DNA from: Paenibacillaceae bacterium ZCTH02-B3
GTDB taxonomy: Bacteria > Bacillota > Bacilli > Paenibacillales > Paenibacillaceae
DNA length: 64,000 nucleotides
Direction of reading: 5' to 3'
Assembly (NCBI GenBank): GCA_002159065.1
Contig: LZRV01000077.1
Span: 12,476 to 76,475 of the forward strand
Part shown: piece by piece, positions 41,007-62,616 of the stretch
How positions within the stretch are numbered: the stretch's first letter is position 1
Layout of the letters: each line of letters begins with the position of its first letter
Made by a program: the position numbers and the translations under genes
Notes under the pieces: model-generated
Databases searched by the model: none
Seen by the model: only the letters and a program-made list of their open reading frames with translations
Told to the model about the DNA's origin: nothing

Positions 41007-42562
41007 GAGATGTTCTCCCGGTCATCCCCCTTGCCTTCGCGCTTCGCCTGATACATCTTCTTGTCCGCGTGCCACAGGAGCAGGTCGATGGTATCGCCGT
41101 GTTCGGGATACCGGCTGATCCCGATGCTCAGACTGACTTCGTCCATGACCGGCCGGTTCGACATCTTCAGCTGCGCAAAGGCGTCGAGCAGCCGCCCGAC
41201 CCGATCCTCCACGTGGCCTTCATCCGGGTAATCGTCAAGGAATATGACGAATTCGTCTCCGCCGATGCGGGCCGCCATGCCGTCCGTTCCCGCCGTGTCG
41301 CTCATCAGGGCGGCGATCTTCACCAGCGCCTCGTCTCCCGTCTGATGCCCGTAGCGGTCGTTCACCGTCTTGAAGTTGTCGACGTCCACAAGCAGAAGCG
41401 CCAGCGGTTTCCGCCGTTCGGCCGGACGATCCAGCTTTTCCTGCAGCTTTTCCCGGAAGTGCCGGCGGTTCGGCAGTTCCGTAAGCGGATCGTGATAGGC
41501 GAGGTAGGCGATTCGCTTCTGCTGTTCGATGAACGGGGTGGCATCCCGAATGATGACCAGGATGTGCGGATGATGCTCGACGAGGATGTAGCCCGCGTCG
41601 ATCAGGGCGTGGATCGTTTTGCCGCCGCCGGAGATCGTCATCTCATGGTTTCTGACCTCCCGCTGACGTTCCACGAGCTCGCGGAAATTTTCGCCCAGAA
41701 TCGACCACAGATTATCCTGTTTCACGGCATGGGAACCGAACATCTCTTTGGCCCCGGGATTGGCTTCCTTGATGAGGCCGCCCGCATCCGCCAGGAGAAT
41801 CGCGGCCGGGTTGAGATGGAACAGCTTCTCGAATCTCCGGTCCGTAAAATTGAGAAAATCGTATTTCCGCATCGTGCGCCTGAGGAAAAAGAACCACACC
41901 ACGCCGCCGTAAAGATAGGGATACGGCGGAAGGGCGCTGCCGAATTCGATCAGGCCGAAAATGCCGAACCACGCCGCAGCCAGAACCACGCCGATGCCGA
42001 GATGCTTGTAAAGGTCGCGCATTTCCCGGTTCGCCGCCTGCCGTTTACCGATGACGAGCGGGATCAGGTACAGGAGATTGTTGATCACGCACAGCACCAT
42101 GGTGATATAGTAAGGCGTATTGTAGACCGGAAGTTTCCAGAGTCCCGATTCATAAAACCGGGTGACGGAAATGGTGGTGTCGATCCGCAGGAGGTTGATC
42201 ACGACCAGGATGACCGGCAGGTAAAAGATCCAGGGGTACACATACCGGGGCATCTTGCGGTCCAGTTTCGTCAGTTTGACGAAGAGGTGAAATCCGAGTC
42301 CCGGAATCAGGATGCCGGACGTGCTGAACCATACGGCGGCCACCACCGGACTGTATTCAATGGGAAGCTGGTGACGCACGTATTCCGCGAGGAACAGGTT
42401 CATGAAGCAAAGCGAAATCAAGCTGACCAGACGGTGTTCGATTTTCCTCGCGTCGCGGATCAGCATGTCGATGCTCATGAAGGCGAAATACAGGATCGGC
42501 ACGAAGTGGGTCAGCAAAGGGACAAAGACCTGCTGGGGTGTCATCGGGTTCACCGTTTTCAA
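41003..42562 (-). CDS. Membrane-anchored PAS-GGDEF diguanylate cyclase
   Basis: About 7 N-terminal TM helices, then a PAS-like region, then LLLVDVDNFKTVNDRYGHQTGD...RIGGDEFVIFL. The stop codons of this gene and the convergent SBP gene overlap (TTAG). Confidence 0.9.
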   Translation of the reverse strand: MKTVNPMTPQQVFVPLLTHFVPILYFAFMSIDMLIRDARKIEHRLVSLISLCFMNLFLAEYVRHQLPIEYSPVVAAVWFSTSGILIPGLGFHLFVKLTKLDRKMPRYVYPWIFYLPVILVVINLLRIDTTISVTRFYESGLWKLPVYNTPYYITMVLCVINNLLYLIPLVIGKRQAANREMRDLYKHLGIGVVLAAAWFGIFGLIEFGSALPPYPYLYGGVVWFFFLRRTMRKYDFLNFTDRRFEKLFHLNPAAILLADAGGLIKEANPGAKEMFGSHAVKQDNLWSILGENFRELVERQREVRNHEMTISGGGKTIHALIDAGYILVEHHPHILVIIRDATPFIEQQKRIAYLAYHDPLTELPNRRHFREKLQEKLDRPAERRKPLALLLVDVDNFKTVNDRYGHQTGDEALVKIAALMSDTAGTDGMAARIGGDEFVIFLDDYPDEGHVEDRVGRLLDAFAQLKMSNRPVMDEVSLSIGISRYPEHGDTIDLLLWHADKKMYQAKREGKGDDRENIS

Positions 42563-42786
42563 ATTTTTAGCCCATACCTAACAAGTTCGACAAATATCGC
42601 CTTTTCCCTGCGAATTTCGCGCATGACGCGAAAATTCGCCGTTTCCCGTGCCGTTCGTGCGCTTTCGCCTGATGCGCGACTTGAACACGCTCCTCCGCAT
42701 CTGGACTCGGGGGCGGTTCCGGAATACAATAGGATTGTTGCGATACCCCCTGGGGTATAAAAACGAGAGGAAAAGGAGGAAATCCA

Positions 42787-43095
42787 TTGTTCCGGACCGA
42801 ATCGCCCGCCGAAGTGCTGGAGAGGCTGAAACGCAACGAATCTTTCACCCTTCTTGACGTTCGGGAATACGACGAATGGGCGGAGGGACACATTCCGGGC
42901 GCCCTGCACATTCCGCTCCGCGAGCTGCCTTTCCGCCTGGGGGAACTGGACAGGTCGAAAGAGACGGTCGTCGTTTGCCTGAGCGGCGTGCGCAGCGCCC
43001 GGGCGTGCGAGTATCTTGCCTTGTGCGGCTACCGGGCGGTCAACATGGAAGGCGGCATGAAGCGCTGGCCCGGAGACGTCGTCTCCGGGCCGTGA
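42787..43095 (+). CDS. Rhodanese-like single-domain sulfurtransferase
   Basis: Contains LLDVREYDEWAEGHIPGALHIP and the active-site loop VVVCLSGVRSARA. Confidence 0.85.
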   Translation: MFRTESPAEVLERLKRNESFTLLDVREYDEWAEGHIPGALHIPLRELPFRLGELDRSKETVVVCLSGVRSARACEYLALCGYRAVNMEGGMKRWPGDVVSGP

Positions 43096-43107
43096 CCGGC
43101 ATCCCTG

Positions 43108-43308
43108 TCAAACGCCATATCGCGCATCGCAGATGGAACACATCGAGTATCCCGGCTTCTTGGGCCTTTTGCCGCACGCTACGCACAAATCCGATTTGGA
43201 CCCCCCGGCGACCTGCTCCAGATCCGATTTGCCAAGCTCCCGGTGATCCGGACGGTGTCCTTCCCGTCCGCCGGCTTCACTCCGCGCGTGAAGGTTTTCC
43301 CGATCCAT
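43108..43308 (-). CDS. Double-glycine leader peptide, four-Cys core (candidate RiPP precursor A)
   Basis: GGAGGAA lies 6 nt before ATG 43308. Leader ...RELGKSDLEQVAGG, core SKSDLCVACGKRPKKPGYSMCSICDARYGV. Confidence 0.6.
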   Translation of the reverse strand: MDRENLHARSEAGGREGHRPDHRELGKSDLEQVAGGSKSDLCVACGKRPKKPGYSMCSICDARYGV

Positions 43309-43450
43309 GCGTCATTCCTCCGTTTCGCTGGTTATGGTCTGCAAGCTTTCATTTCTTCGCGCTGCGTCCTTCCGATCCGCTTCCCGTTTCTCCGGGCCGG
43401 ATCTTCCCGTGTCCGTCTATCGGGCAACTCCGCTTTCCTTGGATGTTGGT

Positions 43451-43663
43451 TCATCCCTGCCGGGATTTCAAATTCACAAGGCATTTGGAGCAAAGATCGA
43501 ACCCCTGGACGGCCACGTTGTCGCAACCCGGGGTCGCGCACGGGTGAACCGATGCGCCGGTGCCGCCGAAAATGAATTCGAGTTCCTCATCGTTCAGTTC
43601 GCGATTCGACAGACCGCGTTCGCCGTCCTTTTCCCGTTCCGGACTGAAGCCTTCCCCGTTCAT
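43451..43663 (-). CDS. Double-glycine leader peptide, four-Cys core (candidate RiPP precursor B)
   Basis: GAAGGAA lies 6 nt before ATG 43663 (Met17 of the track ORF). Leader MNGEGFSPEREKDGERGLSNRELNDEELEFIFGG, core TGASVHPCATPGCDNVAVQGFDLCSKCLVNLKSRQG. Confidence 0.6.
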   Translation of the reverse strand: MNGEGFSPEREKDGERGLSNRELNDEELEFIFGGTGASVHPCATPGCDNVAVQGFDLCSKCLVNLKSRQG

Positions 43664-43701
43664 CTTCCATTCCTTCTTTTTCCTCGTGTTTTGGTATGCC
43701 C

Positions 43702-43745
43702 ATCGTAACATGCCATTTTAAAATGGAGTTTAAATTCCTTTTAAA
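43702..43745 (-). promoter_or_regulatory. Phased-repeat promoter in front of precursor B/A
   Basis: On the minus strand: TTTAAAAggaaTTTAAACtccaTTTTAAA, 9 nt (atggcaTGt), then TACGAT. The 7-mers are exactly 11 bp apart. Confidence 0.6.
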
Positions 43746-43748
43746 TCA

Positions 43749-44462
43749 TTATAAAATTTCCATCCGGTATCCGATGCCCCTGACGTTCTGGATGACGGAC
43801 AAATTCGAGACTTGCAGGATTTTTTTGCGCAGGGTGCTGATATGCACCGCCACCGTGCGAAAATCGTCCAGGCCGTCGTAGCCCCACACGATGCGGTAGA
43901 TTTCTTCGGGCTGAAAGACACGCTTCGGATTTTCCGCCAGCAGGACAAGCACCTTGAACTCTTTCGTGGTCAGTTGCACCGGGCGGCCTTCGACTTCCAC
44001 GGTGCAGCTTTCCAGATCGATGGTGAGCGGACCCAGCCGGATGACGCTTTTGGTTTCCTGGGCCGCCGCCAGCTCCTTCTTGCGTTTGATCAACAGGCTG
44101 CGGCGCAGGTGCGCCTTGACCCTGGCCACCACTTCCCCCTGGCTGTAAGGCTTGCTGATATAGTCGTCGGCTCCCGCCATGAGCCCCATGATCTTGTCCA
44201 TCTCGGAACATTTCGCGCTGATCATGAGAATCGGCACGTCCGTCAGCTTGCGCAATTCCTGGCAGATCATGACGCCATCGCCGTCCGGCAGGATCGCTTC
44301 CATGAGAATGAGATCCGGGGGATTGTCCCGCGCGCTCCGCAAGGCCGCGTCCGCCGAATGGCAGCCGGTGACGCGGTATCCGTCCGACTGAAGCGCCGTG
44401 CCGATCTCCCGACGAACCGCTTCATCGGGATCGGCGATCAGGATGAGGGGTTGCCCTTGCAT
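43749..44462 (-). CDS. OmpR/PhoB-family response regulator, orphan and atypical (Glu at the phospho-acceptor position)
   Basis: The REC domain reads LILIADPDE...PDLILMEAILPDGDG...ILMISAK...ISKP. The winged-helix output reads LTTKEFKVLVLLAENPKRVF...VRGIGYRM. The start is taken at ATG 44462. The TTG at 44534 lies too close to a TATAAT at 44555-44550. Confidence 0.85.
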   Translation of the reverse strand: MQGQPLILIADPDEAVRREIGTALQSDGYRVTGCHSADAALRSARDNPPDLILMEAILPDGDGVMICQELRKLTDVPILMISAKCSEMDKIMGLMAGADDYISKPYSQGEVVARVKAHLRRSLLIKRKKELAAAQETKSVIRLGPLTIDLESCTVEVEGRPVQLTTKEFKVLVLLAENPKRVFQPEEIYRIVWGYDGLDDFRTVAVHISTLRKKILQVSNLSVIQNVRGIGYRMEIL

Positions 44463-44613
44463 CGGGAAACGGTCTCCTTTACCTCGGTTTTCGGCCATAC
44501 CCATACGATACGAGACATTTCGCTCTATTCGCAAGATTCGTTACTTTCCATTATAATCCGGGAAGGAAAAAAATCTATTCAAACCCAGTTTTTTAGCGGG
44601 GATGGTTTGAAAT

Positions 44614-44668
44614 TTTAAACAGAATTTAAACTTGATTTAAACCAGTTTTGAATGTTGTGTGGTATCTT
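44614..44668 (+). promoter_or_regulatory. Phased-repeat promoter in front of the three plus-strand Nif11-type precursor genes
   Basis: TTTAAACagaaTTTAAACttgaTTTAAACcagtTTTGAAT with 7-mers at 44614, 44625, 44636 and 44647. This is followed by 9 nt (gttgtgTGg) and then TATCTT (44663-44668). Confidence 0.65.
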
Positions 44669-44751
44669 TTGATCACAACGAACGAACGATTCTTCCGTGA
44701 ATCCATATCCGTTCGATCACATCCGCCTAATCTCAAAGGAGGGAATTCCCA

Positions 44752-45093
44752 ATGTCGCTCACAAACGCGCAAGCCTGGTTGGAAAAGGTTCGGACCGACC
44801 CCGATCTTCAGGCCAAAATCCGGGAACTGGCCCCCGAACAGCCGGACCGGATTCTGGACGCCCTCGTGGCCGCCGGTGCGGAGGCCGGTTACGCGTTCGG
44901 CAAGGAAGATTTGCTGCAAGCCGCCAAAGAGGCGGTATCTTCCGCCGCCGGGAGCCCGGACGAGCTGGACGAAGAACAGCTGGAGCTGGTGGCCGGCGGC
45001 GACGATACGATCCTGTACGTTTTAGGGTCCATTATCACGGCGGGAATTGGATGTGCCATGCTTGGCTTGAAGCATGCCATCAAAGGTTCCTGA
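44752..45093 (+). CDS. Nif11-type leader peptide precursor 1
   Basis: RBS GGAGGG. Leader MSLTNAQAWLEKVRTDPDLQAKIRELA...EEQLELVAGG, core DDTILYVLGSIITAGIGCAMLGLKHAIKGS. Confidence 0.85.
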   Translation: MSLTNAQAWLEKVRTDPDLQAKIRELAPEQPDRILDALVAAGAEAGYAFGKEDLLQAAKEAVSSAAGSPDELDEEQLELVAGGDDTILYVLGSIITAGIGCAMLGLKHAIKGS

Positions 45094-45172
45094 AAAGAAA
45101 CCCGCGTCAGGGGACCCGGGTACCCCTTCATCCCTCGAATCAACACCCCTAAATTGACTGGGAGGAGATCCA

Positions 45173-45562
45173 ATGTCGTTGGAAAGCGCTCAAGCCTGGT
45201 TGGAAAAGGTCCGGGCCGACTCCGAGCTTAAGGCCAAAATCCTGGAACCGGCCGCCGGACAGCCGGACCGGATTCTGGACGCCCTCGTCGCCGCCGGTTC
45301 GGAGGCCGGTTACACATTCAGCAAGGATGATCTGTTGCAAGCCGTCAAAGAGGCCGTTTCCGAAATCGTCGCCAGGCGAACGGACGGCCTGGACGAAACG
45401 CAGCTGGAATCGGTGGCCGGCGGCGTTTCGGAGGACGTCATTGCGTACTCCTTTGGATCGTTTGGCTTCGGATGTCTCGTATCGTGGCTTCAGGGCTGCG
45501 ATCTTGAAGAAGAAGCGAAAAAAGCGAATAGACCGCCCGGTCCCTATGATCCTTCCTACTGA
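45173..45562 (+). CDS. Nif11-type leader peptide precursor 2
   Basis: RBS GGAGGAG. Leader MSLESAQAWLEKVRADSELKAKI...ETQLESVAGG, core VSEDVIAYSFGSFGFGCLVSWLQGCDLEEEAKKANRPPGPYDPSY. Confidence 0.85.
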   Translation: MSLESAQAWLEKVRADSELKAKILEPAAGQPDRILDALVAAGSEAGYTFSKDDLLQAVKEAVSEIVARRTDGLDETQLESVAGGVSEDVIAYSFGSFGFGCLVSWLQGCDLEEEAKKANRPPGPYDPSY

Positions 45563-45686
45563 CGATTCGTTCGCCTGCAGGCGATTCACCCTTGCGGGCT
45601 CTTCTCGCGCCGCCGGTTCGGTTTTGCTTTCGGCTCCGGGTCCGTTCGGCGCACTTCATCCAACACAAAGACGGGGAGGGATGACC

Positions 45687-46034
45687 ATGTCTGTAGAAAA
45701 TGTCAAGTCGTTCCTGGAAAAAGTGCGGTCCGACTCCGGCTTGCAAAGCCGCATCGGCTCCCTGGCGTCGGACAAGCCGGTTGACGCGAAGGAGGATTGG
45801 TTCCTGGACAGCCTGGTCGCCATCGGCGCGGAGTCCGGCTTTGCGTTCAGCAGGGAGGATTTGCTGCAGGCCGCCAATGAGATCAGGCATAACGCGGTTT
45901 CCGGCGAACTGGACGACGCCCAGCTGGAATCGGTGTCCGGCGGTCTCGATCTCTTCTGGCATATTGTGTTTTCTTTTGCCGTCTTTGGATGCATAGCCGT
46001 AGAAATTGTGGAATGGGGCGAGAAATTGGAATAA
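45687..46034 (+). CDS. Nif11-type leader peptide precursor 3
   Basis: GGGGAGGG lies upstream. The start is ATG 45687 (MSVENVKSFLEKVRSD...), with 45681 as an alternative. The leader ends DAQLESVSGG and the core is LDLFWHIVFSFAVFGCIAVEIVEWGEKLE. Confidence 0.85.
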   Translation: MSVENVKSFLEKVRSDSGLQSRIGSLASDKPVDAKEDWFLDSLVAIGAESGFAFSREDLLQAANEIRHNAVSGELDDAQLESVSGGLDLFWHIVFSFAVFGCIAVEIVEWGEKLE

Positions 46035-46061
46035 CAAGAATCGGAAAAGCCGTACCGGCGT

Positions 46062-47582
46062 TCAGCCTTCCGTTCTGATCCGGATCCGCCCTTCGCTCCC
46101 GTAATCGACAGACCCTTTTTCCCGCGTCAGTTTCTTTGCATATTGAATCAAGGCGTCGGTCAGGACCCCCGCGTCTTCGTCGACGACCCTGCCTTCAAAC
46201 CGGTATCCGTCGCCGCCCGTGCCAAGGAAATCCGGCACGGCGACCCGGTAGACCCGATCCGGATCGACGGGCTGCCCGCCAATGGCAAGCTCCGCGGACC
46301 TGAACGCGCCGGACCCGTCGGTCACGATGACGTAATGCAGGCCCGACGTCTGCAGGTCGACCCGGTTTCTGCCCTGACGCGTATACGAGTATTCGATCAC
46401 GTCCCGCAGGGCTTTGCCGGTCATTTCCACGATCATCACCCGGTTCTGGAACGGCTCGATCCGATGGATGTCGCCCACGGTCATGTCGCCCGGCGCGATC
46501 TCGTTGCGGATGCCGCCGTTGTTCGTGAAGGCGATCTCCGCGTTGTACGCGTCGCGCATGGCGTCCGTCCAGAAATTGCCGACGGGGACGTCTTTTTCAT
46601 ATAATCCTTCCGCGGACAATCCGGTCGCGGTGCGGCCGATGACTTCGCTCAGGAAGGCTTCCAGTTCCTTCTTGTAGCCTTCCGCCTTATCCCGCACCGC
46701 CGCATCGGTTTCCTTGAGTTCTGCCGTCGGCTGCAGCCGGCTGTCCGCAAGTTTCGTTTGTCCGGTCGCGCGATCCAGTTCCAGCTTCACAACGCCGATG
46801 TATCGCAGATCGGCGCCGGCCCGCACGATGGGCGTGCCGTTCACCACTTCGGGACCGCCCGGCGGAGTTTCCCCGCTGCCGCTCACGATCAGGTCGAACA
46901 GGTCGAACCGCTCGGCGAGCCGGCGGTCTTCCTCATCGCCGATGTGCGTGAGCGCGATCAGGATATCCGCCTCGCCGCGCAGGCTGGCGAAACGCTCCAC
47001 GGTGGAGGCGTAATCCCGGAATTCCAGGCCGACGATCCCGCTCCGGCGCGTCTCCGGAGGCGCCTCGGTGATCCCGAGCACGCCGACCTTCACGCCGTCG
47101 AATTCAAACAGGGCATAGGGCTGCGGCTGCCTGATGGGGATCGAAGGGTCCGCCACCTCCATATTGGCGCTGAGCCACGGAAAACGGGAGTCGGCCATGT
47201 TGCGGGCGAACTGTTCCTGTCCGTAGTCAAAATCGAGATTGCCCACCGTCATGGCGTCGAGCCCGGCATCGTTCATCAGATCGATCATGGGCTTGCCTCG
47301 CAGGATGTCCACCACGGGATTGCCTTTGAACATGTCCCCCGCGTCCAGGTACAGCGCGGGACCGGCGGCCTTCGCGTCTTTGACGAAGCGGGCCAGTTGG
47401 CCCGCCGGATCGACGTTGCCGTGCATGTTCGCGGTGTGCAGGACGGTCAGGGTAAAGCGGCCGTTTTTCCCCTCCTCTTCCGGCGATGCTTCGCGGTCCT
47501 TTGGGGCGCAGGCCGCGGCCCCCGGGACTAGCAGGGTTGCGACAAGGGCGACGAGGAACCATTTTCGCGACATGCGTTTCAT
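46062..47582 (-). CDS. Bifunctional metallophosphatase/5'-nucleotidase-like lipoprotein (UshA/YfkN family)
   Basis: Signal peptide and lipobox MKRMSRKWFLVALVATLLVPGAAACA. Motifs include TVLHTANMHGNV, DAGDMFKGN and GNLDFDYG, plus a C-terminal nucleotidase domain. The start is taken at 47582. Confidence 0.8.
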   Translation of the reverse strand: MKRMSRKWFLVALVATLLVPGAAACAPKDREASPEEEGKNGRFTLTVLHTANMHGNVDPAGQLARFVKDAKAAGPALYLDAGDMFKGNPVVDILRGKPMIDLMNDAGLDAMTVGNLDFDYGQEQFARNMADSRFPWLSANMEVADPSIPIRQPQPYALFEFDGVKVGVLGITEAPPETRRSGIVGLEFRDYASTVERFASLRGEADILIALTHIGDEEDRRLAERFDLFDLIVSGSGETPPGGPEVVNGTPIVRAGADLRYIGVVKLELDRATGQTKLADSRLQPTAELKETDAAVRDKAEGYKKELEAFLSEVIGRTATGLSAEGLYEKDVPVGNFWTDAMRDAYNAEIAFTNNGGIRNEIAPGDMTVGDIHRIEPFQNRVMIVEMTGKALRDVIEYSYTRQGRNRVDLQTSGLHYVIVTDGSGAFRSAELAIGGQPVDPDRVYRVAVPDFLGTGGDGYRFEGRVVDEDAGVLTDALIQYAKKLTREKGSVDYGSEGRIRIRTEG

Positions 47583-47610
47583 CCCATCCTTTGTTTGTTT
47601 CGAGTCCGGA

Positions 47611-48750
47611 TTATCCATCGGTTTTCGTCTCATCGGCCAGCCGGCGGAATCCTTCATCGTCGGCCAATTCCTCCAGCGTGAACCGCGAGAGCGTCAGGAT
47701 GAGCCGCGCCTTCTCCTCATGGGAGAGCTTCCCGCCGGGAAACCGGCGGTTCCATTTTTCCAGCCGCCGGGCGGCTTCGACGACCAGCCCTTGCAAAATG
47801 GCGAAGGCGCCGTCGGACAGCGTTCCCCGGTACTGGTGAATCCGTCCGTCCGGACGGCAGTCCGGGTAGCGTTCCAGGCCGAGGAAACGCAGGAACCACT
47901 CCGCCCGGTATTCGCCCGCCGCGACGATGATCGCGACGAAGTCGGCAATCAGCTCGTCGAGCAGCCGGGTGCGCATCGCGCCGAGCACGCGCCGGGTGAA
48001 ATAGTGGACGGATTCGTGTTCCAGGCGGATGGCCAGCGACAGCATCCGCCATTCGTGCTCCGGAAGCCCCATTTCCGCCGCGCCGACCTTGCTGTAGGGT
48101 CCGTCGGTCACGATGGCAAAGCGGTCCAGGTACAGTTCCTTCGGGAGCTCTCCCCCTTCACCCGATGGTTCCCGCCCGTCCCGGTGCCGTTTCAGCCGGT
48201 CCCAATTGCGATAGCCGGATATCAGGCAGGCGCCCATGGTGTCGGGGATCGGTTCCGGTTCGTTTCTCCGGACCAGGGCCTGGACCAATGCGACGAAATC
48301 GCTCCGCTCGCGGACGACGATGACAGGCAGGTGTCCGGCCGGCGTCGGGTGAAAAATCAGCTCGAGGCTGTCCGGGCTTCGCAGGATGAGTCCCGTCGCT
48401 TCGGGTATGCCCCGGGGATTTGCGCCCTGGCGGGTCACCGCCTGGTAGGCGGCCGTCGAGCTCATGCCTTCCCGGACCGGAAACCGCAGCTGGACCAGCT
48501 TCTCCTTCAGCACGGGAAACACGCCGGTCCCCCGGGCTTCCTCCGCGTAGCGCCGCCAGTCGGCGACAAACGGCTCGTCGTCCAGCGGATACTTCTGCGG
48601 AGGCGGATGCGCAAACACGTTGTCATTGTAGGCAAGCAGTTCTTCCGCTACCCGCCCGGTCGCGCCGAAGCGCGCGAGCACTTCCCTTCGAAGCGTGATC
48701 GGATCCACGGCCGCCTCCGGTTTGAGAAGATTTTCGCGCGACGTGCACAT
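47611..48750 (-). CDS. Uncharacterised 379-aa protein with an HExxH motif, encoded 4 nt after lanM
   Basis: The start is taken at ATG 48750, because Met1 of the track ORF lies inside lanM. HESVH is encoded at 48004-48018 within LAIRLEHESVHYFTRRVL. I recognise no family. Confidence 0.7.
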   Translation of the reverse strand: MCTSRENLLKPEAAVDPITLRREVLARFGATGRVAEELLAYNDNVFAHPPPQKYPLDDEPFVADWRRYAEEARGTGVFPVLKEKLVQLRFPVREGMSSTAAYQAVTRQGANPRGIPEATGLILRSPDSLELIFHPTPAGHLPVIVVRERSDFVALVQALVRRNEPEPIPDTMGACLISGYRNWDRLKRHRDGREPSGEGGELPKELYLDRFAIVTDGPYSKVGAAEMGLPEHEWRMLSLAIRLEHESVHYFTRRVLGAMRTRLLDELIADFVAIIVAAGEYRAEWFLRFLGLERYPDCRPDGRIHQYRGTLSDGAFAILQGLVVEAARRLEKWNRRFPGGKLSHEEKARLILTLSRFTLEELADDEGFRRLADETKTDG

Positions 48751-48754
48751 GTTC

Positions 48755-51700
48755 CTATCGCAATACACTTTGGATTTCCGCGGGAGCCGCGCACCGCAGC
48801 AAGGTATAGCCGATCCCCGAGATCCCCTGGAAAAAGGACGGATTGAACCAGGCGCCCCCGTCGCCCCCGTGAAGCAGATAGTGCCCGTTTCTCCGCTTGC
48901 GGGCGATGACCGCCCCCGCTTTCCGCCTTGCTTCCTCCAGCAGATCCGGCCGGCCAAGCGCAAGCGATGCCTCGACGAGAAAGTCGATTTTGCCCGCGTT
49001 GCCGCAGCAGACGTGGTCGTTCATTTCCAGCGTGCACGTGCGGGCAAATTCCACCGCGTTTTCGACGTCCCGCATGAACCGCCGGCGCAAGTTCCGTTCC
49101 CCGTCTTCCCCGCTTGCTGCGGCTTCCGCCTCTGTCCCGGCTTCGACGCCTGTTCCGGTTTGCGCGCTTTTTCCGGCATTCCCGCCGTCCGCGCCGGCGG
49201 TCAGCATGGCAATGCGGGCCAATCCGACGCCGGGAGCGCCGCTGCACCAGCCCGGCATGAACGCCGCACCGCCGCCCGCCGCCTGTACGGCCTTCTCGCG
49301 CAAATCCGGCCAATTGCCATGCTTTTCGTCATACAGGCTGTTTTCATAATCCACCGCTTCCATGGCCGCGTCCCGAAACGCCCGTTCTCCCGTCGCCCGC
49401 CACAGGCGGTACAGGGCGGCGGCATAGCCGGCCGCGCCGTGACCCATCCCCGTGAGAGGTTCCGGGGCGATTCCGGTGGTCCAGACCCGGTGGCCCGACT
49501 TCGCCCGCACCCGGGATTTCAGCAAATGTTCGCCGCACCGTTTCGCCAGATCGAGGAGATCGCCGCTCTTTTCGGAGCGGTGCAGATCGAGGAGCACCAG
49601 GATGAGGCCTGCCGCCCCGCCGAGCACGTCCAGCCAGCGGTCGCCGTCGATCTGTTCCGGCCGGATCCGGCGCACAAGCCACAGGGCGGCTTCCGTCAGG
49701 CCGGGTTCTCCCAGATAATCGCCCATGACCGCCAGACCCCTGACGATGCCCGCCAGGCCGCTTCCCAGTCCCAGGGGCATCCGGTACGCCGGGAACGGAT
49801 GATCCCGGTCGTTCAGGCTTTTCAGCAAAGGATTCAAGGCCTGGAGGACCGTTTCCCGGATCGCTTCCTTCCCCGTCAGCCGGTACAGGGCGGCCATGAA
49901 CACGCCCAGGCCGGCCAGTCCGTCGTAGAAGCCGAAGCCGATCCGGCCGAGGGTCATTTTTTGGGCCTGCAAATGATACTGCCGCACGATCCACGTGAAA
50001 TCCCCGTCCGCTCCCACGATCCGCCTGGCCATGATTTCCTCGCAGATGCCGGCGGCTTCCCCGATCAGAAGTTCGTCGCCCGGATCTTCCGGTTCCGCCG
50101 GGACGCGGAATTTGTCCGGCCTCTGGTTACGAGTCCGCTCCGGCGTCCGGCCCGGCGTCGGGTCCGGCAGCCGGTCCGGGGGCTGTTCCGAAGTCCGGTC
50201 CGGGGGCCGCTCCCCCGCCGCATGGGACGGCTCCGAGGCCATGGACAGGGCCGTCCTGATGAGATCGATCTGCGCGTTTTTGTCCCGTTCGTCCATGCGC
50301 CGGATCAGGGCTTTCGCCCGGTCGAAGGCGCTTTCGAGAAAATAGCCCGGATGAAGCGTCCCGCTTCCGTCCTCGAGGGCCAGATTCCGCGCGTGCCCGT
50401 AAAAGATCGGGACGTCCCGGTTTTCCAGCGCGTCCCGCTCCGCGCAAAACACCTTCCACAGCTCCCGCAGCCCGTCGTCGGGCGCCGCGATCAGGTAGGC
50501 CGGAGCCAGGCGTTCCACTTCGAAGGAATAGAGCAGTCCGTCGCGGAGAAACCCGGGCTGGGCGGCATGGTTCAGCACATCGGCATAAACTTGCGAGTTC
50601 CGGATCAGGATGCGGAACCGGCACGTTCCGAAAGCGTCGAGCGGCGACGTTTCCCCCGCGTGTTCTCCCAGGATCCGGGGCTTCTCCCCGGCGATCCGGT
50701 CGTAAGCCCACGCGAATCCGGCCAGCAGATGCTCCTCGTAATCCCGCACATCCAGCGGCCGGCCGTCCAGAACGGGCAGATGGAGACCGCGCTCTTCCCG
50801 GCAGGTGAGCGCCCCCCAGTCCGCCGCCTTCCCCTGGGCGTTCACGTGCCAGTACGGCAGCATGCCGACGCGCAGGACCGAATCGCCAAGGGTATCGAGG
50901 GCCAGATCGGCCGCGCTTTTGCCGCTTTCCCCCAGATGGAACGGTTTCACCCGGTGCAGAAGCAGCGTTTCCAGATCGACGGGGACGGGATGGGCGCCGC
51001 TGGCGATCAGGTTTTCGAAATGAAAGTCGTTTCCGCCCAGCGCGTAGATCGTGCCGAGGAGAACACCGGCCCGGAAATAGAAGGCCGCGGCGTCCTCTGG
51101 CCGCGTGAGCGGCCTTCGCTCCACGAATTCCGCCCAGCCGTGGTCTCCCTCGTCCAGCACCCGGGGCGTCCACAGCCGGTGGGGAATTCCGTCCCGTTCC
51201 AGGAAGCGGATCCATTCGTTCCAGGCGGCGTCAATGGCCAGGCTCCTGGGCTTGTAAACGAGTCTCAGGCCGGATTCGAAGGCGAGAAGAAGAACGGTTT
51301 TGCCCCCGTTGTGGACATCGGACGCGTTCGCCTCCACCGCGGTTACCCGCCCAAGCGGCCTGCCTTCGTGAAACGCCTCTTCCAGCTTCATCTGGTCCGC
51401 CGCGAGGCGGGCGGCGAATTCCGCCAGATTCCTCTTCCATTGGCCGATCGCCTGCACCATGAACCGGGCGAGGACGGGATGCTCCGCCAGCACGTCCTTC
51501 CATTTTCCCGCCGCAAGTTCCGCCAAATACGCTTTCCATTCCGCCTGCCACTCCTCGTGGAAGAACGAGGGTCCAAGCAGGAGATGCAGCGGTTTTTTGC
51601 CGCTCATGGCCGCCAGAAAACCGGCGCGGCACGTCCGGAAACTAAGCGTTGCCAGCCGCTTGGCCAGCGCCCTGCGCATGTCCCGTACGGCGGAATCGGC

Positions 51701-52156
51701 GAACAACCGGAGTTTCTCCCCAAGCCTTCCGGCCAGCTGCTCGCAGGCATCCTCCAGAAACGGCTCCAGGGCCGGGGTCGGATCCCACAACCCTTGGCCT
51801 TCTTCCGGCGGCGAAGCGGACATCCGCTGAAGCCGCGACAAGATGCGCTCCAGTTCCCGCACCCATTCGGGAAGGGGCGTTTCCGCCTTCCAACGCACGG
51901 GGCCGAGCAGCCGTCCGGCCTCGTCCGGCGAAAGTCCGTCCAGGGCGAGGCGTTTGCGAAACGCCGTCTCTCCGCCGCTTCCGCCGGCTTTTTTCCGCCA
52001 GCGGGCAAACAGGTCCTCACGGACCCCGGGCGGCGCCTCCCCGATCTCGACGGACCCCGCCCGCGACAGTTCCAGCCGTTCTTTGAGAAACAGCGCCCTG
52101 CCGGCGATTTCGCGCCATTCGTTCTCCGTGAACACGGCCATTCTAGACACCCGCAT
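48755..52156 (-). CDS. lanM: Class II lanthipeptide synthetase LanM (dehydratase + LanC-like cyclase), ProcM-like CCG type
   Basis: 1133 aa. The dehydratase motif is GGNDFHFENLIASGAHPVPVDLETL. The cyclase motifs are GMGHGAAGY, GWCSGAPGVG and VCCGNAGKIDF. The start may be Met6 (52141). Confidence 0.9.
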   Translation of the reverse strand: MRVSRMAVFTENEWREIAGRALFLKERLELSRAGSVEIGEAPPGVREDLFARWRKKAGGSGGETAFRKRLALDGLSPDEAGRLLGPVRWKAETPLPEWVRELERILSRLQRMSASPPEEGQGLWDPTPALEPFLEDACEQLAGRLGEKLRLFADSAVRDMRRALAKRLATLSFRTCRAGFLAAMSGKKPLHLLLGPSFFHEEWQAEWKAYLAELAAGKWKDVLAEHPVLARFMVQAIGQWKRNLAEFAARLAADQMKLEEAFHEGRPLGRVTAVEANASDVHNGGKTVLLLAFESGLRLVYKPRSLAIDAAWNEWIRFLERDGIPHRLWTPRVLDEGDHGWAEFVERRPLTRPEDAAAFYFRAGVLLGTIYALGGNDFHFENLIASGAHPVPVDLETLLLHRVKPFHLGESGKSAADLALDTLGDSVLRVGMLPYWHVNAQGKAADWGALTCREERGLHLPVLDGRPLDVRDYEEHLLAGFAWAYDRIAGEKPRILGEHAGETSPLDAFGTCRFRILIRNSQVYADVLNHAAQPGFLRDGLLYSFEVERLAPAYLIAAPDDGLRELWKVFCAERDALENRDVPIFYGHARNLALEDGSGTLHPGYFLESAFDRAKALIRRMDERDKNAQIDLIRTALSMASEPSHAAGERPPDRTSEQPPDRLPDPTPGRTPERTRNQRPDKFRVPAEPEDPGDELLIGEAAGICEEIMARRIVGADGDFTWIVRQYHLQAQKMTLGRIGFGFYDGLAGLGVFMAALYRLTGKEAIRETVLQALNPLLKSLNDRDHPFPAYRMPLGLGSGLAGIVRGLAVMGDYLGEPGLTEAALWLVRRIRPEQIDGDRWLDVLGGAAGLILVLLDLHRSEKSGDLLDLAKRCGEHLLKSRVRAKSGHRVWTTGIAPEPLTGMGHGAAGYAAALYRLWRATGERAFRDAAMEAVDYENSLYDEKHGNWPDLREKAVQAAGGGAAFMPGWCSGAPGVGLARIAMLTAGADGGNAGKSAQTGTGVEAGTEAEAAASGEDGERNLRRRFMRDVENAVEFARTCTLEMNDHVCCGNAGKIDFLVEASLALGRPDLLEEARRKAGAVIARKRRNGHYLLHGGDGGAWFNPSFFQGISGIGYTLLRCAAPAEIQSVLR

Positions 52157-53294
52157 CCAGGTACTCGAACTTGCCGCCCGTCACCTTCTTCAGCACGACG
52201 AGGTCGCCGATGTCCTCCCCGTTCCGGTCGAAGGTGTGGAACCCGGCGACGCCTTCCCAGTTTTCGATGGTATGAAGGGCAGCCGCGATGTCGCGGGGGA
52301 CGATCGACCGGGCCCGGTTCATGGCCTCGGCCAGCAGGTGGACGGCGTCATACCCCTGCGCGGAATATTGGGTCGGCATGGTGCCGTAAGCCCTGTTGAA
52401 AACATCGATGAACGCCTTCACCTTTTCCCGCCGGCTTTCGGGGTTGAAGAAGGCGCCGATCACCATGCCTTCCGCGGCCTTCGCCCCGGCGATGCTCCAC
52501 AGGTTCGGCGTGTCCATGGCGTTCCCCGCGAACAGCGGAACCCCGATGCCGGCCGCCCGCAGCTCCGCGACGAGCTGCGCGCCCGCCGCGCCCGACTTGG
52601 CGATGAAGATCCCGTCGTACTCCAGGATCTCCCATTTGAACTTGAGCCGCTCCAGTTCCGACGGTCCGGTATAGAAGGTCAGGCGGTCCACAATGTCGAT
52701 GCCGGAACGGCCCGCGTGTTTTTCAAAGGCGTCCGCCAGCCCCTTCCCATAGGCGTCGTCGTCGTACAGGATGACCATCCGGCGGTGTCCGTTCCGGGCG
52801 GCGTAGTTGGCCACGGAGGCGGCCACCTGCTCGTCGCTGGCGATGTTGCGGAACACGAGCCGCTGCTTCTCGCTGATGAATTCGGGAGCGCTGGAAGCGG
52901 GAGACAGCATGAGGATGCCGGCCCGTTCATAGATGGAGGAAACCGGAATGGACACGTAGGAATTCCGATGCCCGATCACGGCCACCACCTGGATGTCCTC
53001 CGAGAAAGACTGGGCGATTTCCAGCCCTTTCGTCACCGAGGATTCGTCGTCCTTGATAATGACGTTCAGCTGGCGCCCCAGCACCCCGCCGTCGGCGTTG
53101 AGTTCCGACACGGCAAGGGCAACGCCTTCCAGGAACCAGTCGTTGGCGGCGGAGATGGGCCAGGCCACTCCGATCGAAATGGGACCCCTGTGGCGCTTGG
53201 CGAAGGCTTCGCGCTCTTGCGCCGTGGATGCGACCGAGCAACCGGCAACGGCCATCGCCAGCAAGAGGAGGATGGCAATCGGCAAGCGTCTCAT
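52143..53294 (-). CDS. LivJ-like (Peripla_BP_6) ligand-binding lipoprotein
   Basis: GAAAGGAGAT lies upstream of ATG 53294. Lipobox LLAMAVAGCS. Contains ISIGVAWPISAANDWFLEGVALAVSELNADGGVLGRQL. It overlaps the annotated lanM start by 14 nt. Confidence 0.85.
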   Translation of the reverse strand: MRRLPIAILLLLAMAVAGCSVASTAQEREAFAKRHRGPISIGVAWPISAANDWFLEGVALAVSELNADGGVLGRQLNVIIKDDESSVTKGLEIAQSFSEDIQVVAVIGHRNSYVSIPVSSIYERAGILMLSPASSAPEFISEKQRLVFRNIASDEQVAASVANYAARNGHRRMVILYDDDAYGKGLADAFEKHAGRSGIDIVDRLTFYTGPSELERLKFKWEILEYDGIFIAKSGAAGAQLVAELRAAGIGVPLFAGNAMDTPNLWSIAGAKAAEGMVIGAFFNPESRREKVKAFIDVFNRAYGTMPTQYSAQGYDAVHLLAEAMNRARSIVPRDIAAALHTIENWEGVAGFHTFDRNGEDIGDLVVLKKVTGGKFEYLDAGV

Positions 53295-54583
53295 GCTTTG
53301 ATCTCCTTTCCAACCCGCACGGGACGGGACGCCTTGACCGCGGAACCATTGACGAGAATGGTCGACGCGCAGGCCAAATGCACGTTCAGCATCGTCAGGA
53401 TCGGGTCGACGATGGGCGTGACCGCGAGCAGCAGCACCACCGCCGTTTCCGAAGGAAGCCCCAGCGGCGCCAGAATGATGCCGATCATCGACAGCGAGAC
53501 GAGGGCGGGAGCCCCCGCGCCCGAGAGAGCGGCCAGGATGGAAGCCAGGAGGACCGTCGCGATTTGCCCCGGGCCCAAGGGCACGCCATACAGCTGGGCC
53601 ACAAAGATCGTCCCGACGGAAAACATCGTCACCATGCTGTACCGGCAAAGGATGATGCTCAGGGGAGTCACGAAATTGACCGTTTTCTCCTCCAGCCGGT
53701 AACGCGCGCGCAGCGCCTGGAAGATGAACGGCAGCGTCGCCAGGCTGTTGCGGGTGCCGAAGGCGATGAGCAGCGGCTGTTTGAGGTCCGCCGTCGACCG
53801 CACCAACGAACGCCCGGTCAGCTTCCAGATCAGAACCGCGCTCAGGAGCAGGATGATCAGGCACGCGAGATGGATCAGGACGATGAATTTCGTCATGGCC
53901 GCCAGCAAATCCATTCCCATCGACGCGAACTGGCCGGCCATCAGGCAGAGCAGCCCGACGGGCAGTCCGTAGATGCTCCAGCCGATGATCCGCTCGAAAG
54001 CCTTGTAGATCACCTCGATGACGTCCAGGACGTCGTCCCGCTTTTTCTCGCGGACGGTACCGATGGCCACGCCGAACACCATGGCCACGAACAGCACCTG
54101 CAGGTTCTGTTCGCCGAGCAGCGATTCGAACAGGTTGGTCGGGATGATCATGGCCAGAAAATCCATCACCGTAAAGGCGCCCTGCGTTCCGGACTGGCCG
54201 CTGACCATCGCCTCTCCGCCCATGATCGCGTTTCCCAGCACTTCCCGCGCGCGCTGATCCAGGCCGGTCCCCGGATTACCGATCAGCCCCACGCCGACGC
54301 CGATGAGGCTGACCAGCAGCAGGCCGGTGGCGAAGGTCAGCACCGTCCGCTTCAGGTAACGCACCGCCTCCCGCGAAGCCATGAGCTTGCCCAGGCTGGA
54401 GATGATGGCCGTCACCATGATGGGAACGACCAGCATTTTTAAAAAGGAAAGATACAATTCCCCGACGGGGGCGATAAACAGGGCGACATTCCGATCGTAG
54501 AGCCCCAGCAGAATGCCGATCGCCATCGCGGCCAGGGACGTGCCGGGCCGCTTGAGCCATTCCAGTTTCGCCATGGGTTTCAC
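53291..54583 (-). CDS. Dicarboxylate/amino acid:cation symporter (DAACS / SDF family)
   Basis: 430 aa. Contains LYLSFLKMLVVPIMVTAIISSLGKL and TRNSLATLPF plus a SxS-type reentrant-loop region. It has 4-nt overlaps with both neighbouring genes. Confidence 0.85.
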   Translation of the reverse strand: MKPMAKLEWLKRPGTSLAAMAIGILLGLYDRNVALFIAPVGELYLSFLKMLVVPIMVTAIISSLGKLMASREAVRYLKRTVLTFATGLLLVSLIGVGVGLIGNPGTGLDQRAREVLGNAIMGGEAMVSGQSGTQGAFTVMDFLAMIIPTNLFESLLGEQNLQVLFVAMVFGVAIGTVREKKRDDVLDVIEVIYKAFERIIGWSIYGLPVGLLCLMAGQFASMGMDLLAAMTKFIVLIHLACLIILLLSAVLIWKLTGRSLVRSTADLKQPLLIAFGTRNSLATLPFIFQALRARYRLEEKTVNFVTPLSIILCRYSMVTMFSVGTIFVAQLYGVPLGPGQIATVLLASILAALSGAGAPALVSLSMIGIILAPLGLPSETAVVLLLAVTPIVDPILTMLNVHLACASTILVNGSAVKASRPVRVGKEIKA

Positions 54584-55512
54584 TCCGTCCCCCGGCCCGG
54601 TTCGCCGGGCGAATTGCCGTACCGGTCAAGCAGCTGGCCGATGTCCAGCGGCGGCAGATAGGCCAGATATTCCTTCAGCCATGCCTGCATGTGGAAGTGG
54701 CTCGGCGGAATGGCGACGGCCAGGTTGTCCTTGCGCCCTTCCAGCACGACAAATTGCAGATCCAACAGGACGTCCGGAAATTCGTTGATGTGCCGCTGGA
54801 ACTCGAACTCGTCGTAAAACGCGGCCGCGATGTCTCCCCGCCGCACGTCTTCCAGCATGCGCTCCCTCGAATCATACGGAACGACTTCCGACGCGTGGAA
54901 AATTTCCCGGGCAAATTCCATGTAGGATGTTCCCGCCATGGCGCCGATTTCCACCGGGTTGGTCCGCAGCAGTTCGATCGGGTCCGTCATCTGCCGGGTT
55001 TTCAGGGCGGCCAGCCGCATCCGGTTGACGAGCAGCGCCTGCCTCAGCGACAGATACGGTTCGCTGAACAGCACCCGCTGGGCGCGGTTCAGCGTGATGC
55101 TGATCTTCGAGACGGCCATGTCGTACCGGCCCGCGGCCACCAGATCGATGAGCTCTTCAAACGACCGCGCCGAGCGGTCGAACCGGACCTCCGCGACGCC
55201 CAATTGGCGGGCGATGTCCCGGGCCATTTCCACGTCGCTGCCGACCAGTTCTCCCCGCTCGTCCACAAAGAAAAAGGGAAAGCGGTCTTCCGCATACATG
55301 CCCACCGTCAGGTAGCCGTTTTCATGGATCCGCCGAAATTCGTCGGGCAGCGTCGGAAAATACCGGGGGTCCATCGTTTTCACGGGCTCGGGCGAGCCGT
55401 TTGGCCTCGGCGTTCCGCTTGTCTCGGGCCCGTTGCCGGCGGGAGCGCCGCATGCGCCAAGGATTGCCGACAGGACCAGTGCGGCCAGGAAGGTTTTGAA
55501 TTCCCGATTCAT
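54580..55512 (-). CDS. Amino-acid-type solute-binding lipoprotein (SBP_bac_3)
   Basis: Lipobox AILGACG followed by a Pro-rich linker. Contains YLTVGMYAEDRFPFFFVDERGELVGSDVEMARDIARQLG. Confidence 0.8.
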   Translation of the reverse strand: MNREFKTFLAALVLSAILGACGAPAGNGPETSGTPRPNGSPEPVKTMDPRYFPTLPDEFRRIHENGYLTVGMYAEDRFPFFFVDERGELVGSDVEMARDIARQLGVAEVRFDRSARSFEELIDLVAAGRYDMAVSKISITLNRAQRVLFSEPYLSLRQALLVNRMRLAALKTRQMTDPIELLRTNPVEIGAMAGTSYMEFAREIFHASEVVPYDSRERMLEDVRRGDIAAAFYDEFEFQRHINEFPDVLLDLQFVVLEGRKDNLAVAIPPSHFHMQAWLKEYLAYLPPLDIGQLLDRYGNSPGEPGRGTE

Positions 55513-55526
55513 GCGCTCCCCCTCTG

Positions 55527-58187: not shown

Positions 58188-58210
58188 CTGCCGTTCCCCT
58201 TCCCGGAGCG

Positions 58211-60367: not shown

Positions 60368-60384
60368 TGCGGAACGCACCCGCC

Positions 60385-61344: not shown

Positions 61345-61574
61345 CGTCAGGATCTCCCTCCGCCCATTCAGGCCGCTCCCCGCCCCGGCGCACGCGGAGC
61401 CGCCGGACAACGCTTGCAACCTCGCCGTATCGATTTTTCCGGTTTATTTCCGAAATTCGTCGTTTTCCAGCGCTTTTTGCGGAAACCCTTTTATTTGTTC
61501 CACAATCGTCCCGCTTTTTCCTTCCGGGTTGTCCCGACATCTTGTCGTTTCATGCCGGACGCGTCGCCATTTCA

Positions 61575-62574: not shown

Positions 62575-62616
62575 CTTGATTCCCTCCATCGCGGAATTTC
62601 CTGATCGGCTGACTCT

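Follow-up and report, generated by a model that had tools for sequence, protein, structure and literature searches.

What is made from small genes that join a long Nif11 leader to a short hydrophobic core with hardly any cysteine? We address this question for three tandem genes (precursors 1 to 3, positions 44752 to 46034) in a 64,000-nucleotide stretch of DNA, hereafter the window, from contig LZRV01000077.1 of Paenibacillaceae bacterium ZCTH02-B3. A first-pass annotation of the window had described their products as Nif11-leader peptides with unrelated cores, which would be matured by a class II lanthipeptide synthetase (LanM) into membrane-active, minimally cross-linked peptides. We found that at least cores 1 and 2 are, judged by their profile scores, diverged copies of one conserved core, and we consider it rather probable that precursors 1 to 3 are Nif11-leader class II lanthipeptide precursors, substrates of LanM that would give hydrophobic peptides with one or two rings. 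The precursor genes of the window are as follows.

44752-45093, plus strand: precursor 1, 113 residues with an 83-residue Nif11 leader; open reading frame with ribosome-binding site AAAGGAGGG
45173-45562, plus strand: precursor 2, 129 residues with an 84-residue Nif11 leader
45687-46034, plus strand: precursor 3, 115 residues with an 86-residue Nif11 leader that carries a 5-residue insertion
61766-62128, minus strand: precursor 4, 120 residues, heading the biosynthetic operon
62239-62589, minus strand: precursor 5, 111-116 residues, with a Nif11 leader, at the head of the biosynthetic operon

Precursor genes and their cores

The three tandem open reading frames of the first-pass annotation were confirmed. 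Each is preceded by a strong ribosome-binding site, and all three products pass the Pfam Nif11 model (PF07862; 37.2, 36.7 and 39.5 bits for precursors 1, 2 and 3, curated cut-off 23.8) as well as TIGR03798 (49.6, 45.1 and 45.8 bits, curated cut-off 32.3), which is named 'Nif11-like leader peptide family RiPP precursor' and is specific to the precursor subfamily. The annotation had omitted the two minus-strand Nif11 precursors at 61766-62128 and 62239-62589. For precursor 3, a longer in-frame reading frame starting at 45327 is an artefact, because the Shine-Dalgarno sequence GGGGAGGG lies 7 nucleotides before the ATG at 45687 and public gene calls likewise give a protein of 115 residues. Identical proteins in NCBI are each a 'hypothetical protein' of this same metagenome-assembled genome, and identical proteins in identical synteny occur in roughly a hundred metagenome assemblies. 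A consensus terminator scan gave no convincing terminator between precursors 1, 2 and 3, and an Rfam scan of the window returned no match.

The leaders carry the determinants of double-glycine cleavage. That of precursor 1 ends in ...LDEEQLELVAGG, and the leaders of precursors 1, 2 and 3 all have G-1, G-2, V-4, L-7 and L-12; the four remaining Gly-Gly peptides encoded in the window have the same residues, except that one carries I at -4. The C39 protease LahT150 requires these leader residues, including V-4, L-7 and L-12 (PMC6363468). In an AlphaFold2 model of precursor 2 the Nif11 leader forms a helical bundle (pLDDT 81-92). Leader identity is 71% between precursors 1 and 2 and 46-51% between precursor 3 and either of them, in agreement with the earlier description of the first two leaders as close paralogues and the third as more distant.

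After the Gly-Gly, core 1 reads DDTILYVLGSIITAGIGCAMLGLKHAIKGS, core 2 VSEDVIAYSFGSFGFGCLVSWLQGCDLEEEAKKANRPPGPYDPSY and core 3 LDLFWHIVFSFAVFGCIAVEIVEWGEKLE, exactly as quoted in the first-pass annotation, and for the motif comparison below they read GSIITAGIGCAML, YSFGSFGFGCLVSWLQGCDLE and WHIVFSFAVFGC, respectively. The annotation had also counted one or two cysteines per core and noted Ser/Thr upstream of Cys; the counts are indeed 1, 2 and 1, with Ser/Thr measured 5-9 residues N-terminal of Cys in each core. The best 19-residue Kyte-Doolittle windows of cores 1, 2 and 3 average 1.96, 1.26 and 2.04, in the transmembrane range, and their net charges are 0, -4 and -4. Pairwise identity among the three is 17-23%.

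A core family nonetheless emerged when we built a HMMER profile from the five window precursors and searched it exhaustively against 1.84 billion representatives. The profile gave 2505 matches, many of the best of which align through the core, and these define the motif W-x3-S-x2-[S/T]-x-G-x2-C-x2-S ... C-x-L-D. Relative to the first Cys (position 0), W lies at -12, Ser at -8, Ser/Thr at -5, Gly at -3 and, usually, Ser at +3; the second Cys follows 8-20 residues after the first, often with x-L-D behind it, and both cysteines are invariant in a 25-sequence alignment. The pattern S..[ST].G..C occurs in 33 of the 134 parsed cores of the best database representatives, counted with no pre-selection, compared with 0.2 expected by shuffling. 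Position -8 is S or T, never Ala or Gly, in 46/46 family sequences, a set that is partly motif-selected. Mean net core charge across the family is -0.5, with negative values in 20/46 cores.

Scoring the window cores against a profile hidden Markov model (HMM) of 46 cores from other organisms with their leaders removed, with 1000 shuffles as the null, gave the following.

Core 1: 25.3 bits, reached by 0/1000 shuffles; the highest of all window cores
Core 2: 17.9 bits, reached by 0/1000 shuffles
Core 4: 8.3 bits, reached by 3/1000 shuffles
Core 3: 0.8 bits, reached by 90/1000 shuffles
Core 5: -1.9 bits, reached by 687/1000 shuffles; not a significant member

The earlier picture of unrelated cores with nothing in common but a G-x-G-C patch therefore fails, with cores 1 and 2 both matching the external-core HMM at scores that no shuffle reached. 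Core 2 has the complete motif (S, S, G, C, S and the second C, followed by DLE; residues S9, S12, C17, S20 and C25) and then a polar tail. Core 1 retains the family S, T, G and first Cys (S10, T13 and C19) and is without the +3 Ser and the second Cys. Core 3 keeps the W, one Ser and one Cys around a two-residue deletion that leaves an S-to-C spacing of 6 (S10, C16), and MAFFT places its W, S, G and C into the family columns. Core 4, DWWLIFSFIPATGVLCALSAIGAVAEAAGDSHFSCVFK, has two Cys and matches the family motif apart from an insertion of 2 residues. Core 5, TGSISQDEIDGHSYILQAAVRLGFAPFKG, is Cys-free and less hydrophobic, so that precursor 5 alone cannot form a lanthionine.

In the databases the family members are almost all unnamed metagenomic proteins, and for that reason the family is absent from current lanthipeptide catalogues. 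We found no published characterisation of the core family in the literature searched, which is absence of evidence and not proof of novelty. A curated Pfam model that touches the family may already exist, PF27893, an accession that precomputed annotation lists on the one-Cys precursors P0333 and P0335 (P numbers are our handles for precursors from other sources, L numbers those for loci). Scanning the contigs of GTDB representatives, among which the source organism was not included, with the five window precursors found only an unrelated Rhodocyclales Nif11 locus (L007). As a separate observation, three loci (L021, L022 and L023) hold Nif11-leader arrays with conserved Cys/His-rich cores of about 60-75 residues, NRYDP..C....Y.CVGF...CDH...C.MG, and no modifying enzyme is visible on their short contigs.

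The LanM cluster, its relatives and its regulator

Convergent to precursors 1-3 runs one tightly packed minus-strand operon (62589 to 46062), which begins with precursors 5 and 4 and continues through an export cassette, transport genes, LanM, a DUF7005 protein and a 5'-nucleotidase.

60385-61419, minus strand: HlyD-like NHLM adaptor; TIGR03794 314 bits (cut-off 156)
58211-60499, minus strand: PCAT, a C39-ABC exporter (Peptidase_C39, ABC_membrane and ABC_tran); TIGR03796 1130 bits (cut-off 853)
55527-58187, minus strand: second NHLM ABC subunit, without a peptidase domain; TIGR03797 928 bits (cut-off 709)
54580-55512, minus strand: SBP_bac_3 protein by Pfam scan, in the 52143-55512 block
53291-54583, minus strand: sodium:dicarboxylate-family symporter, in the same block
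52143-53294, minus strand: Peripla_BP_6 protein, in the same block
48755-52156, minus strand: LanM, class II lanthipeptide synthetase, 1133 residues (DUF4135 and LANC_like); TIGR03897 691 bits (cut-off 304)
47611-48708, minus strand: DUF7005 protein, 365 residues, directly downstream of LanM; PF22541 E = 6e-122
46062-47657, minus strand: predicted secreted 5'-nucleotidase/metallophosphatase, placed last in the operon and convergent with precursor 3

The LanM gene stops 2.7 kb from precursor 3. Its zinc-ligand motifs, GWCSG and HVCCG, place the enzyme in the ProcM (CCG) type, and in a published survey Nif11 precursors were associated only with CCG LanMs (PMC10027976). The three-gene NHLM cassette (55527-61419) is complete, with every model over its equivalog cut-off, and Nif11-leader precursors have been associated with this export cassette before (PMC2887384). 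The C39 domain of the PCAT keeps its catalytic Cys (VECG), and the protein presumably cuts behind Gly-Gly and then exports the peptides.

To ask how specifically the core family keeps company with LanM, we compared its loci with Nif11 loci that have other cores and at least 5 kb of sequence. A LanM gene adjoins the precursors or lies no more than 10 kb away in L008, L012, L014, L015, L017, L018, L020, L036 and the window, that is, in 9/10 informative family loci as opposed to 2/10 loci with other cores (Fisher p = 0.0055; 0.015 after merging two pairs of close relatives), numbers that are indicative rather than definitive in a small and partly motif-chosen sample. The CCG motif is common to the LanMs of all family loci, and identity to the window LanM is 37-49% in most of them, compared with 28% in the other-core loci. 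Near LanM at L017 and L018 the only Nif11-type precursor found is one family member, with two small Gly-Gly peptide genes in addition at L018. At L012 eight tandem Nif11 genes surround LanM; five carry the full motif (one with Thr for the first Ser), one a variant without the Gly and one an unrelated core.

Two groups of loci deserve separate mention. Clusters at L008 (3396-11463), L014 (1-5663) and L015 (237-8740) contain GNAT, two ketosynthase, acyl carrier protein, FabA-like dehydratase and ketoreductase genes beside LanM, with GNAT in L008 and L015 and fatty acid synthase (FAS)-like genes in L008 and L014. The family cores of all three start with Lys, and these clusters together with the Lys-initiated cores suggest lipidated, selidamide-like variants of the same hydrophobic-core family. 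No GNAT is present among the open reading frames scanned in the window cluster (42787-62589). At L026, Nif11 precursors (173-1834) adjoin a LanM (2005-5388), and their cores have several Thr and end in K(I/P)KW, for example TPAVTAVTGVVVPVATALIDKIKW. They are mostly Cys-free (one of the four has a single Cys), which is odd beside LanM, and similar cores occur in P0346 and P0348.

The SBP_bac_3, symporter and Peripla_BP_6 genes separate the exporter from LanM, the stop of one gene overlapping the start of the next. All three have counterparts beside LanM elsewhere, 81-86% identical in L018 and 30-38% identical in L017, a distant locus whose LanM is itself 31% identical to that of the window. By this recurrence they are a conserved part of the cluster type, and one without an obvious role in lanthipeptide biosynthesis. 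The DUF7005 protein belongs to a family in which identity stays at about 50% across Firmicutes, Nostoc and Acidobacteriota; H231, E232 and H235 (an HExxH motif) and D251, E252 and D256 are invariant in 26 sequences, and the protein is modelled with high confidence by AlphaFold2 (pLDDT 92). It is a possible zinc metallopeptidase of the zincin type. We found no PDB sequence match, and the best Foldseek match had E = 0.4, the weak top matches being zinc peptidases; because neither search gave a significant match, the peptidase idea stands on the invariant HExxH alone. No mention of DUF7005 was found in the literature searched. The gene recurs in the Nif11 loci L015, L024, L025 and L029 and is absent from the closest relative, L018, as befits an accessory gene. 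The 5'-nucleotidase adjoins the precursor in L018 (10446-11957) and in L019, and L016 has a homologue with 25% identity (L016 1-1332) close to its array of family precursors.

On the other side of precursors 1-3 lie a regulator, two sets of repeats and two small peptide genes.

44614-44653, plus strand: TTTAAAC direct repeats, 3-4 copies at a period of 11 bp, some 100 bp ahead of precursor 1
43749-44462, minus strand: OmpR-family response regulator (Response_reg and Trans_reg_C), divergent from precursors 1-3
43717-43746, minus strand: TTTAAAC direct repeats upstream of the first small Gly-Gly peptide gene (43663)
43451-43663, minus strand: small Gly-Gly-leader peptide with four-Cys core TGASVHPCATPGCDNVAVQGFDLCSKCLVNLKSRQG, downstream of the response regulator
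43108-43308, minus strand: small Gly-Gly-leader peptide with four-Cys core SKSDLCVACGKRPKKPGYSMCSICDARYGV, downstream of the response regulator

The pattern TTTAAAC-N4-TTTAAAC has 8 overlapping matches in the 64 kb, at two places only, compared with 0.07 expected, and the triple-repeat pattern has 4 matches compared with 0 expected. Beyond the repeats at 44614-44653 an extended -10-like element, TGgTATCTT, occupies 44660-44668, and repeats and element may together serve the precursor operon as operator and promoter. The OmpR-type regulator is a candidate binder of the TTTAAAC repeats that probably controls this operon. Its position is kept in L018 (84% global identity) and L019 (93% over 30% of the protein), and the repeats upstream of the orthologous precursor are kept in L019 and degenerate in L018, where they are clear upstream of a pepX-like gene. 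The occurrence of the repeats at both promoter regions suggests that the precursor operon and the small peptides are co-regulated. Precursor 5 is preceded, at about 62635-62675, by a weaker repeat of similar A/T-rich kind, TTTAAA..TTTTAT..TTTAAC..TTTAAC.

The leaders of the small peptides have L-12, L-7 and I/V-4, and the peptides match no Pfam or NCBIfam model. In L018 their four cysteines are kept as C-x2/4-C ... C-x2-C and most of their Ser/Thr are not, and on that ground they look like exported zinc-ribbon-like or disulfide-bonded peptides rather than lanthipeptides. G+C content is 0.56-0.57 across 42001-46000, the region of small peptides and precursors, and 0.63-0.66 in the flanking biosynthetic operon.

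Maturation model and competing readings

Whereas the gene structure, the family memberships, the conserved core motif, the association with LanM and the cleavage determinants are shown by the sequences, LanM action on the peptides, their ring topology, their regulation and any membrane activity are inferred from them, in the following model. Transcription would start at the promoter overlapped by the TTTAAAC repeats and be controlled by the adjacent OmpR-type regulator. The helical Nif11 leader of 83-86 residues would recruit the ProcM-type (CCG) LanM and present the core to it, and LanM would dehydrate Ser/Thr before the first Cys (spacing of 5 or 8 residues for the canonical motif, 6 or 9 for core 1, 6 for core 3). 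The first Cys would then add to one dehydrated residue to form the first ring, and in precursor 2 the second Cys would close another ring, for which the Ser at +3 is the simplest partner. Precursors 1 and 3 would thus yield one ring each and precursor 2 two, in keeping with the one or two small rings proposed in the first-pass annotation, which are the most that the Cys content permits. The NHLM exporter (C39-ABC, second ABC and HlyD-like adaptor) would finally cut after Gly-Gly and export hydrophobic, neutral-to-acidic peptides of 29-45 residues. Rings of the C-x-x-S kind are also possible in these cores, because related enzymes are known to make rings in which Cys precedes the dehydrated residue, namely Cys5-Thr9 and Cys14-Ser18 in nostolysamide (PMC13060382) and Cys4-Thr7 in phaeornamide. 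Membrane activity is suggested by hydropathy alone, and the charge argues for caution.

The history of the three genes bears on what the cores are under selection for. In two related organisms, at L018, whose LanM is 71% identical to that of the window, and at L019, a single precursor lies between the response regulator and the 5'-nucleotidase, and it is the orthologue of precursor 2 in both (P0053 and P0051, respectively). Precursor 2 and P0053 are 76% identical in the core and 58% in the leader, the shared core including the polar tail GCDLEEEAKKAN.PPGP.DPSY. Between orthologues, then, the core is better conserved than the leader, which indicates that purifying selection acts on the core and is the reverse of what prochlorosins show. 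The ProcA-type description given earlier thus holds for the Gly-Gly-cleaved ProcA/Nif11 precursors and the presence of a CCG LanM, and does not hold for hypervariable, unrelated cores. By its orthology precursor 2 is the ancestral gene at the site, and since L018 and L019 carry only its orthologue here, precursors 1 and 3 are lineage-specific additions. In P0005, from JGI metagenomes, the first ~40 residues of the precursor 1 leader are joined to the rest of precursor 2, either by recombination between tandem paralogues or as an assembly chimera.

Several observations weigh against the proposal that LanM modifies precursors 1-3. These genes are convergent to the LanM operon and not inside it; core 3 is not a statistically significant member of the family (0.8 bits, 90/1000 shuffles); and precursor 5 being Cys-free, not every Nif11 peptide of the cluster can become a lanthipeptide. 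No LanM was found at the family locus L016, a 12-kb contig that ends 2 kb past the precursor array. The per-position conservation figures of the family set are inflated, because the set is partly motif-selected, and in a helix the conserved S, S/T, G, C and S would share roughly the same face, so that the S/T/G/C stripe could be small-residue packing and the two Cys a disulfide. AlphaFold2 does place a helix over the core in the precursor 2 model used to check helicity, at low confidence (pLDDT 41-61). Finally, neutral or acidic cores are atypical for membrane-permeabilising, pore-forming bacteriocins.

It is unlikely, if far from negligible, that the products are unmodified or disulfide-bonded double-glycine peptides of a bacteriocin- or pheromone-like kind, with the Nif11 leader serving for cleavage and export only and LanM acting elsewhere. 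Such peptides would fit the transmembrane-range hydropathy of the cores, the absence of Cys from precursor 5 and the Cys-free, Gly-rich, transmembrane-like cores of many other Nif11 precursors (P0060, P0094 and P0114, for example), and they have a parallel in Lachnospiraceae C6A11, for which nine Nif11-led LahA peptides and a PCAT are described in a paper that mentions no LanM (PMC6363468). The two nearby four-Cys Gly-Gly peptides could then be alternative clients of LanM or the exporter, and the window peptides do weakly match the Bacteriocin_IIc, cerein 7B and lactococcin models at E = 0.03-0.07, although all of these matches lie below the curated cut-offs. What disfavours this explanation is the specific association of the family with LanM (9/10 versus 2/10 loci), including L017 and L018, where the family precursor is the lone Nif11-type precursor near LanM and where, in L018, the small peptides that might replace it as substrates keep their Cys and not their Ser/Thr. 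Against it also stands Ser -8, which is S or T in 46/46 sequences of the partly motif-selected set. We give very little credence to the idea that the genes encode non-cleaved small Nif11-domain proteins anchored in the membrane by hydrophobic C-termini. A hydrophobic segment of about 19 residues with a Kyte-Doolittle value near 2 and a Nif11 domain predicted as a folded helical bundle (pLDDT 81-92) would suit an anchored protein, but the canonical Gly-Gly site with V-4, L-7 and L-12, the dedicated C39 exporter in the cluster and the precursor-subfamily specificity of TIGR03798 all speak for cleavage, and family cores often have long polar tails, with the second Cys beyond the hydrophobic stretch.

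A different question is whether all three genes still function. If only precursor 2 (and precursor 4) were a functional lanthipeptide precursor, precursors 1 and 3 would have arisen by recent duplication and lost half of the motif, and would now be in decay or without function. This would explain why the precursor 2 orthologue stands alone at this site in L018 and L019 and why cores 1 and 3 are without the second Ser and the second Cys, core 3 not even being significantly family-like; moreover, a word-indexed search of 5.8 billion clusters with precursor 1 found only same-species copies and its paralogue precursor 2, and no orthologue beyond the species. We nevertheless regard decay as distinctly improbable. 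Both precursors have intact reading frames, strong ribosome-binding sites, complete leaders and intact cleavage determinants, and core 1 has the top score against the external-core HMM. Their cores are identical in every metagenomic variant seen, the few amino-acid changes of precursors 1, 3, 4 and 5 all falling in the leaders, and one-Cys truncated cores also stand beside two-Cys cores on an unrelated 270-kb contig of another organism (P0333 and P0335). Given the intact genes, the invariant cores and this precedent elsewhere, the one-ring versions look like a recurring subtype rather than decay. More speculative, and in our view improbable, is the thought that hydrophobic-core Nif11 peptides are widespread membrane-resident or membrane-targeted lanthipeptides with a non-killing role, for example as a signal or a transporter modulator. 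Their partners might be the two solute-binding proteins, the dicarboxylate/amino-acid symporter, the DUF7005 protein and the 5'-nucleotidase, and co-regulation with the two exported four-Cys mini-peptides would run through the TTTAAAC operator.

Relation to known lanthipeptide systems

As a whole, the system is a Nif11/ProcM-type class II lanthipeptide cluster with an NHLM exporter, a kind that is known (PMC2887384, PMC7268733). It resembles the prochlorosins and cyanotins described there in its Nif11 leaders up to the Gly-Gly, its several precursor genes per genome, its one CCG LanM and its NHLM export, and in those systems, too, precursor genes need not sit in the LanM operon. It differs from them in its cores. 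Prochlorosin cores are hypervariable, polar and polycyclic, whereas the window has one conserved core family, more conserved between orthologues than the leader, whose members here are hydrophobic with 1-2 Cys; and the prochlorosin host is a cyanobacterium, the window host a Paenibacillaceae metagenome-assembled genome from a thermophilic consortium.

Nostolanthin (NltA1/A2, NltM) is likewise a Nif11-leader class II system with a conserved core motif, two rings, three transporter genes including a C39 ABC, and an associated response regulator, and no antibiotic activity was found for it (bioRxiv 10.64898/2026.08.14.744816). Its 19-residue core, (S/T)HxHxSCCxDCP, is polar with three Cys, unlike the hydrophobic W..S..S.G..C..S...C cores, and its regulator is a two-component system of the PAS type as opposed to the OmpR type of the window. 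The nostolysamides (NpuA/NpuM/NpuN, PMC13060382) and selidamides (PMC8784127) share Nif11 or NHLP leaders and a ProcM-clade LanM with the window, and their products are membrane-disrupting. Selidamide cores start with Lys, as do the family cores of L008, L014 and L015, while the NpuA core (S4, C5, T9, T12, C14, S18, C20, S23, C25) has a different sequence and four rings. We considered identity with the nostolysamide (NpuA), nostolanthin (NltA) or mpp product (MppE, ACWRWSG; PMC11791876) and rejected it, since none of these cores resembles the family motif.

Among Firmicutes, the LahA1-9 peptides of Lachnospiraceae bacterium C6A11 (PMC6363468) also form a Nif11-led Gly-Gly array with diverse, partly hydrophobic cores and a PCAT; the paper mentions no LanM, which the window has, and the comparison covers the published description of the array. 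Class IIb and other double-glycine bacteriocins have in common with the window peptides the Gly-Gly leaders, C39 ABC export, hydrophobic, helical, Gly/Ser-rich cores and tandem genes. Their leaders, in contrast, are 15-30 residues long and come with no modification enzyme, compared with Nif11 leaders of 83-86 residues here, and they are usually cationic, where the window cores are neutral or acidic. Bacteriocin models stayed below their cut-offs on the window peptides (Bacteriocin_IIc 14.1 bits, cut-off 27.1; TIGR03949 13.4, cut-off 21.5; NF038167 13.8, cut-off 32).

LanM-made peptides that are hydrophobic and helical, carry few rings and act on membranes exist in the enterococcal cytolysin CylLL/CylLS and in the beta-peptides of two-component lantibiotics. 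These have short non-Nif11 leaders, a CHG-type LanM and rings at the termini. The window peptides gave no match to the Pfam cytolysin/mersacidin precursor model in an HMM scan, the sole comparison made with this group.

The added interest of the locus lies in its conserved core family, its adjacent one-ring and two-ring paralogues and its conserved accessory genes. The last of these (DUF7005 with its HExxH motif, the two binding proteins and the symporter) have no assigned role in lanthipeptide biology. Practical value is moderate: the peptides would be new scaffolds from a thermophilic Firmicute, and being hydrophobic they are probably hard to handle. If LanM does modify them, they would constitute a conserved lanthipeptide family with one or more thioether rings inside a transmembrane-like helix, with one-ring and two-ring versions encoded side by side. 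Such a family would stand in contrast to the hypervariable-core model of ProcM-type systems, and its members would form a natural series in which to study the effect of one ring on a membrane-active helix.

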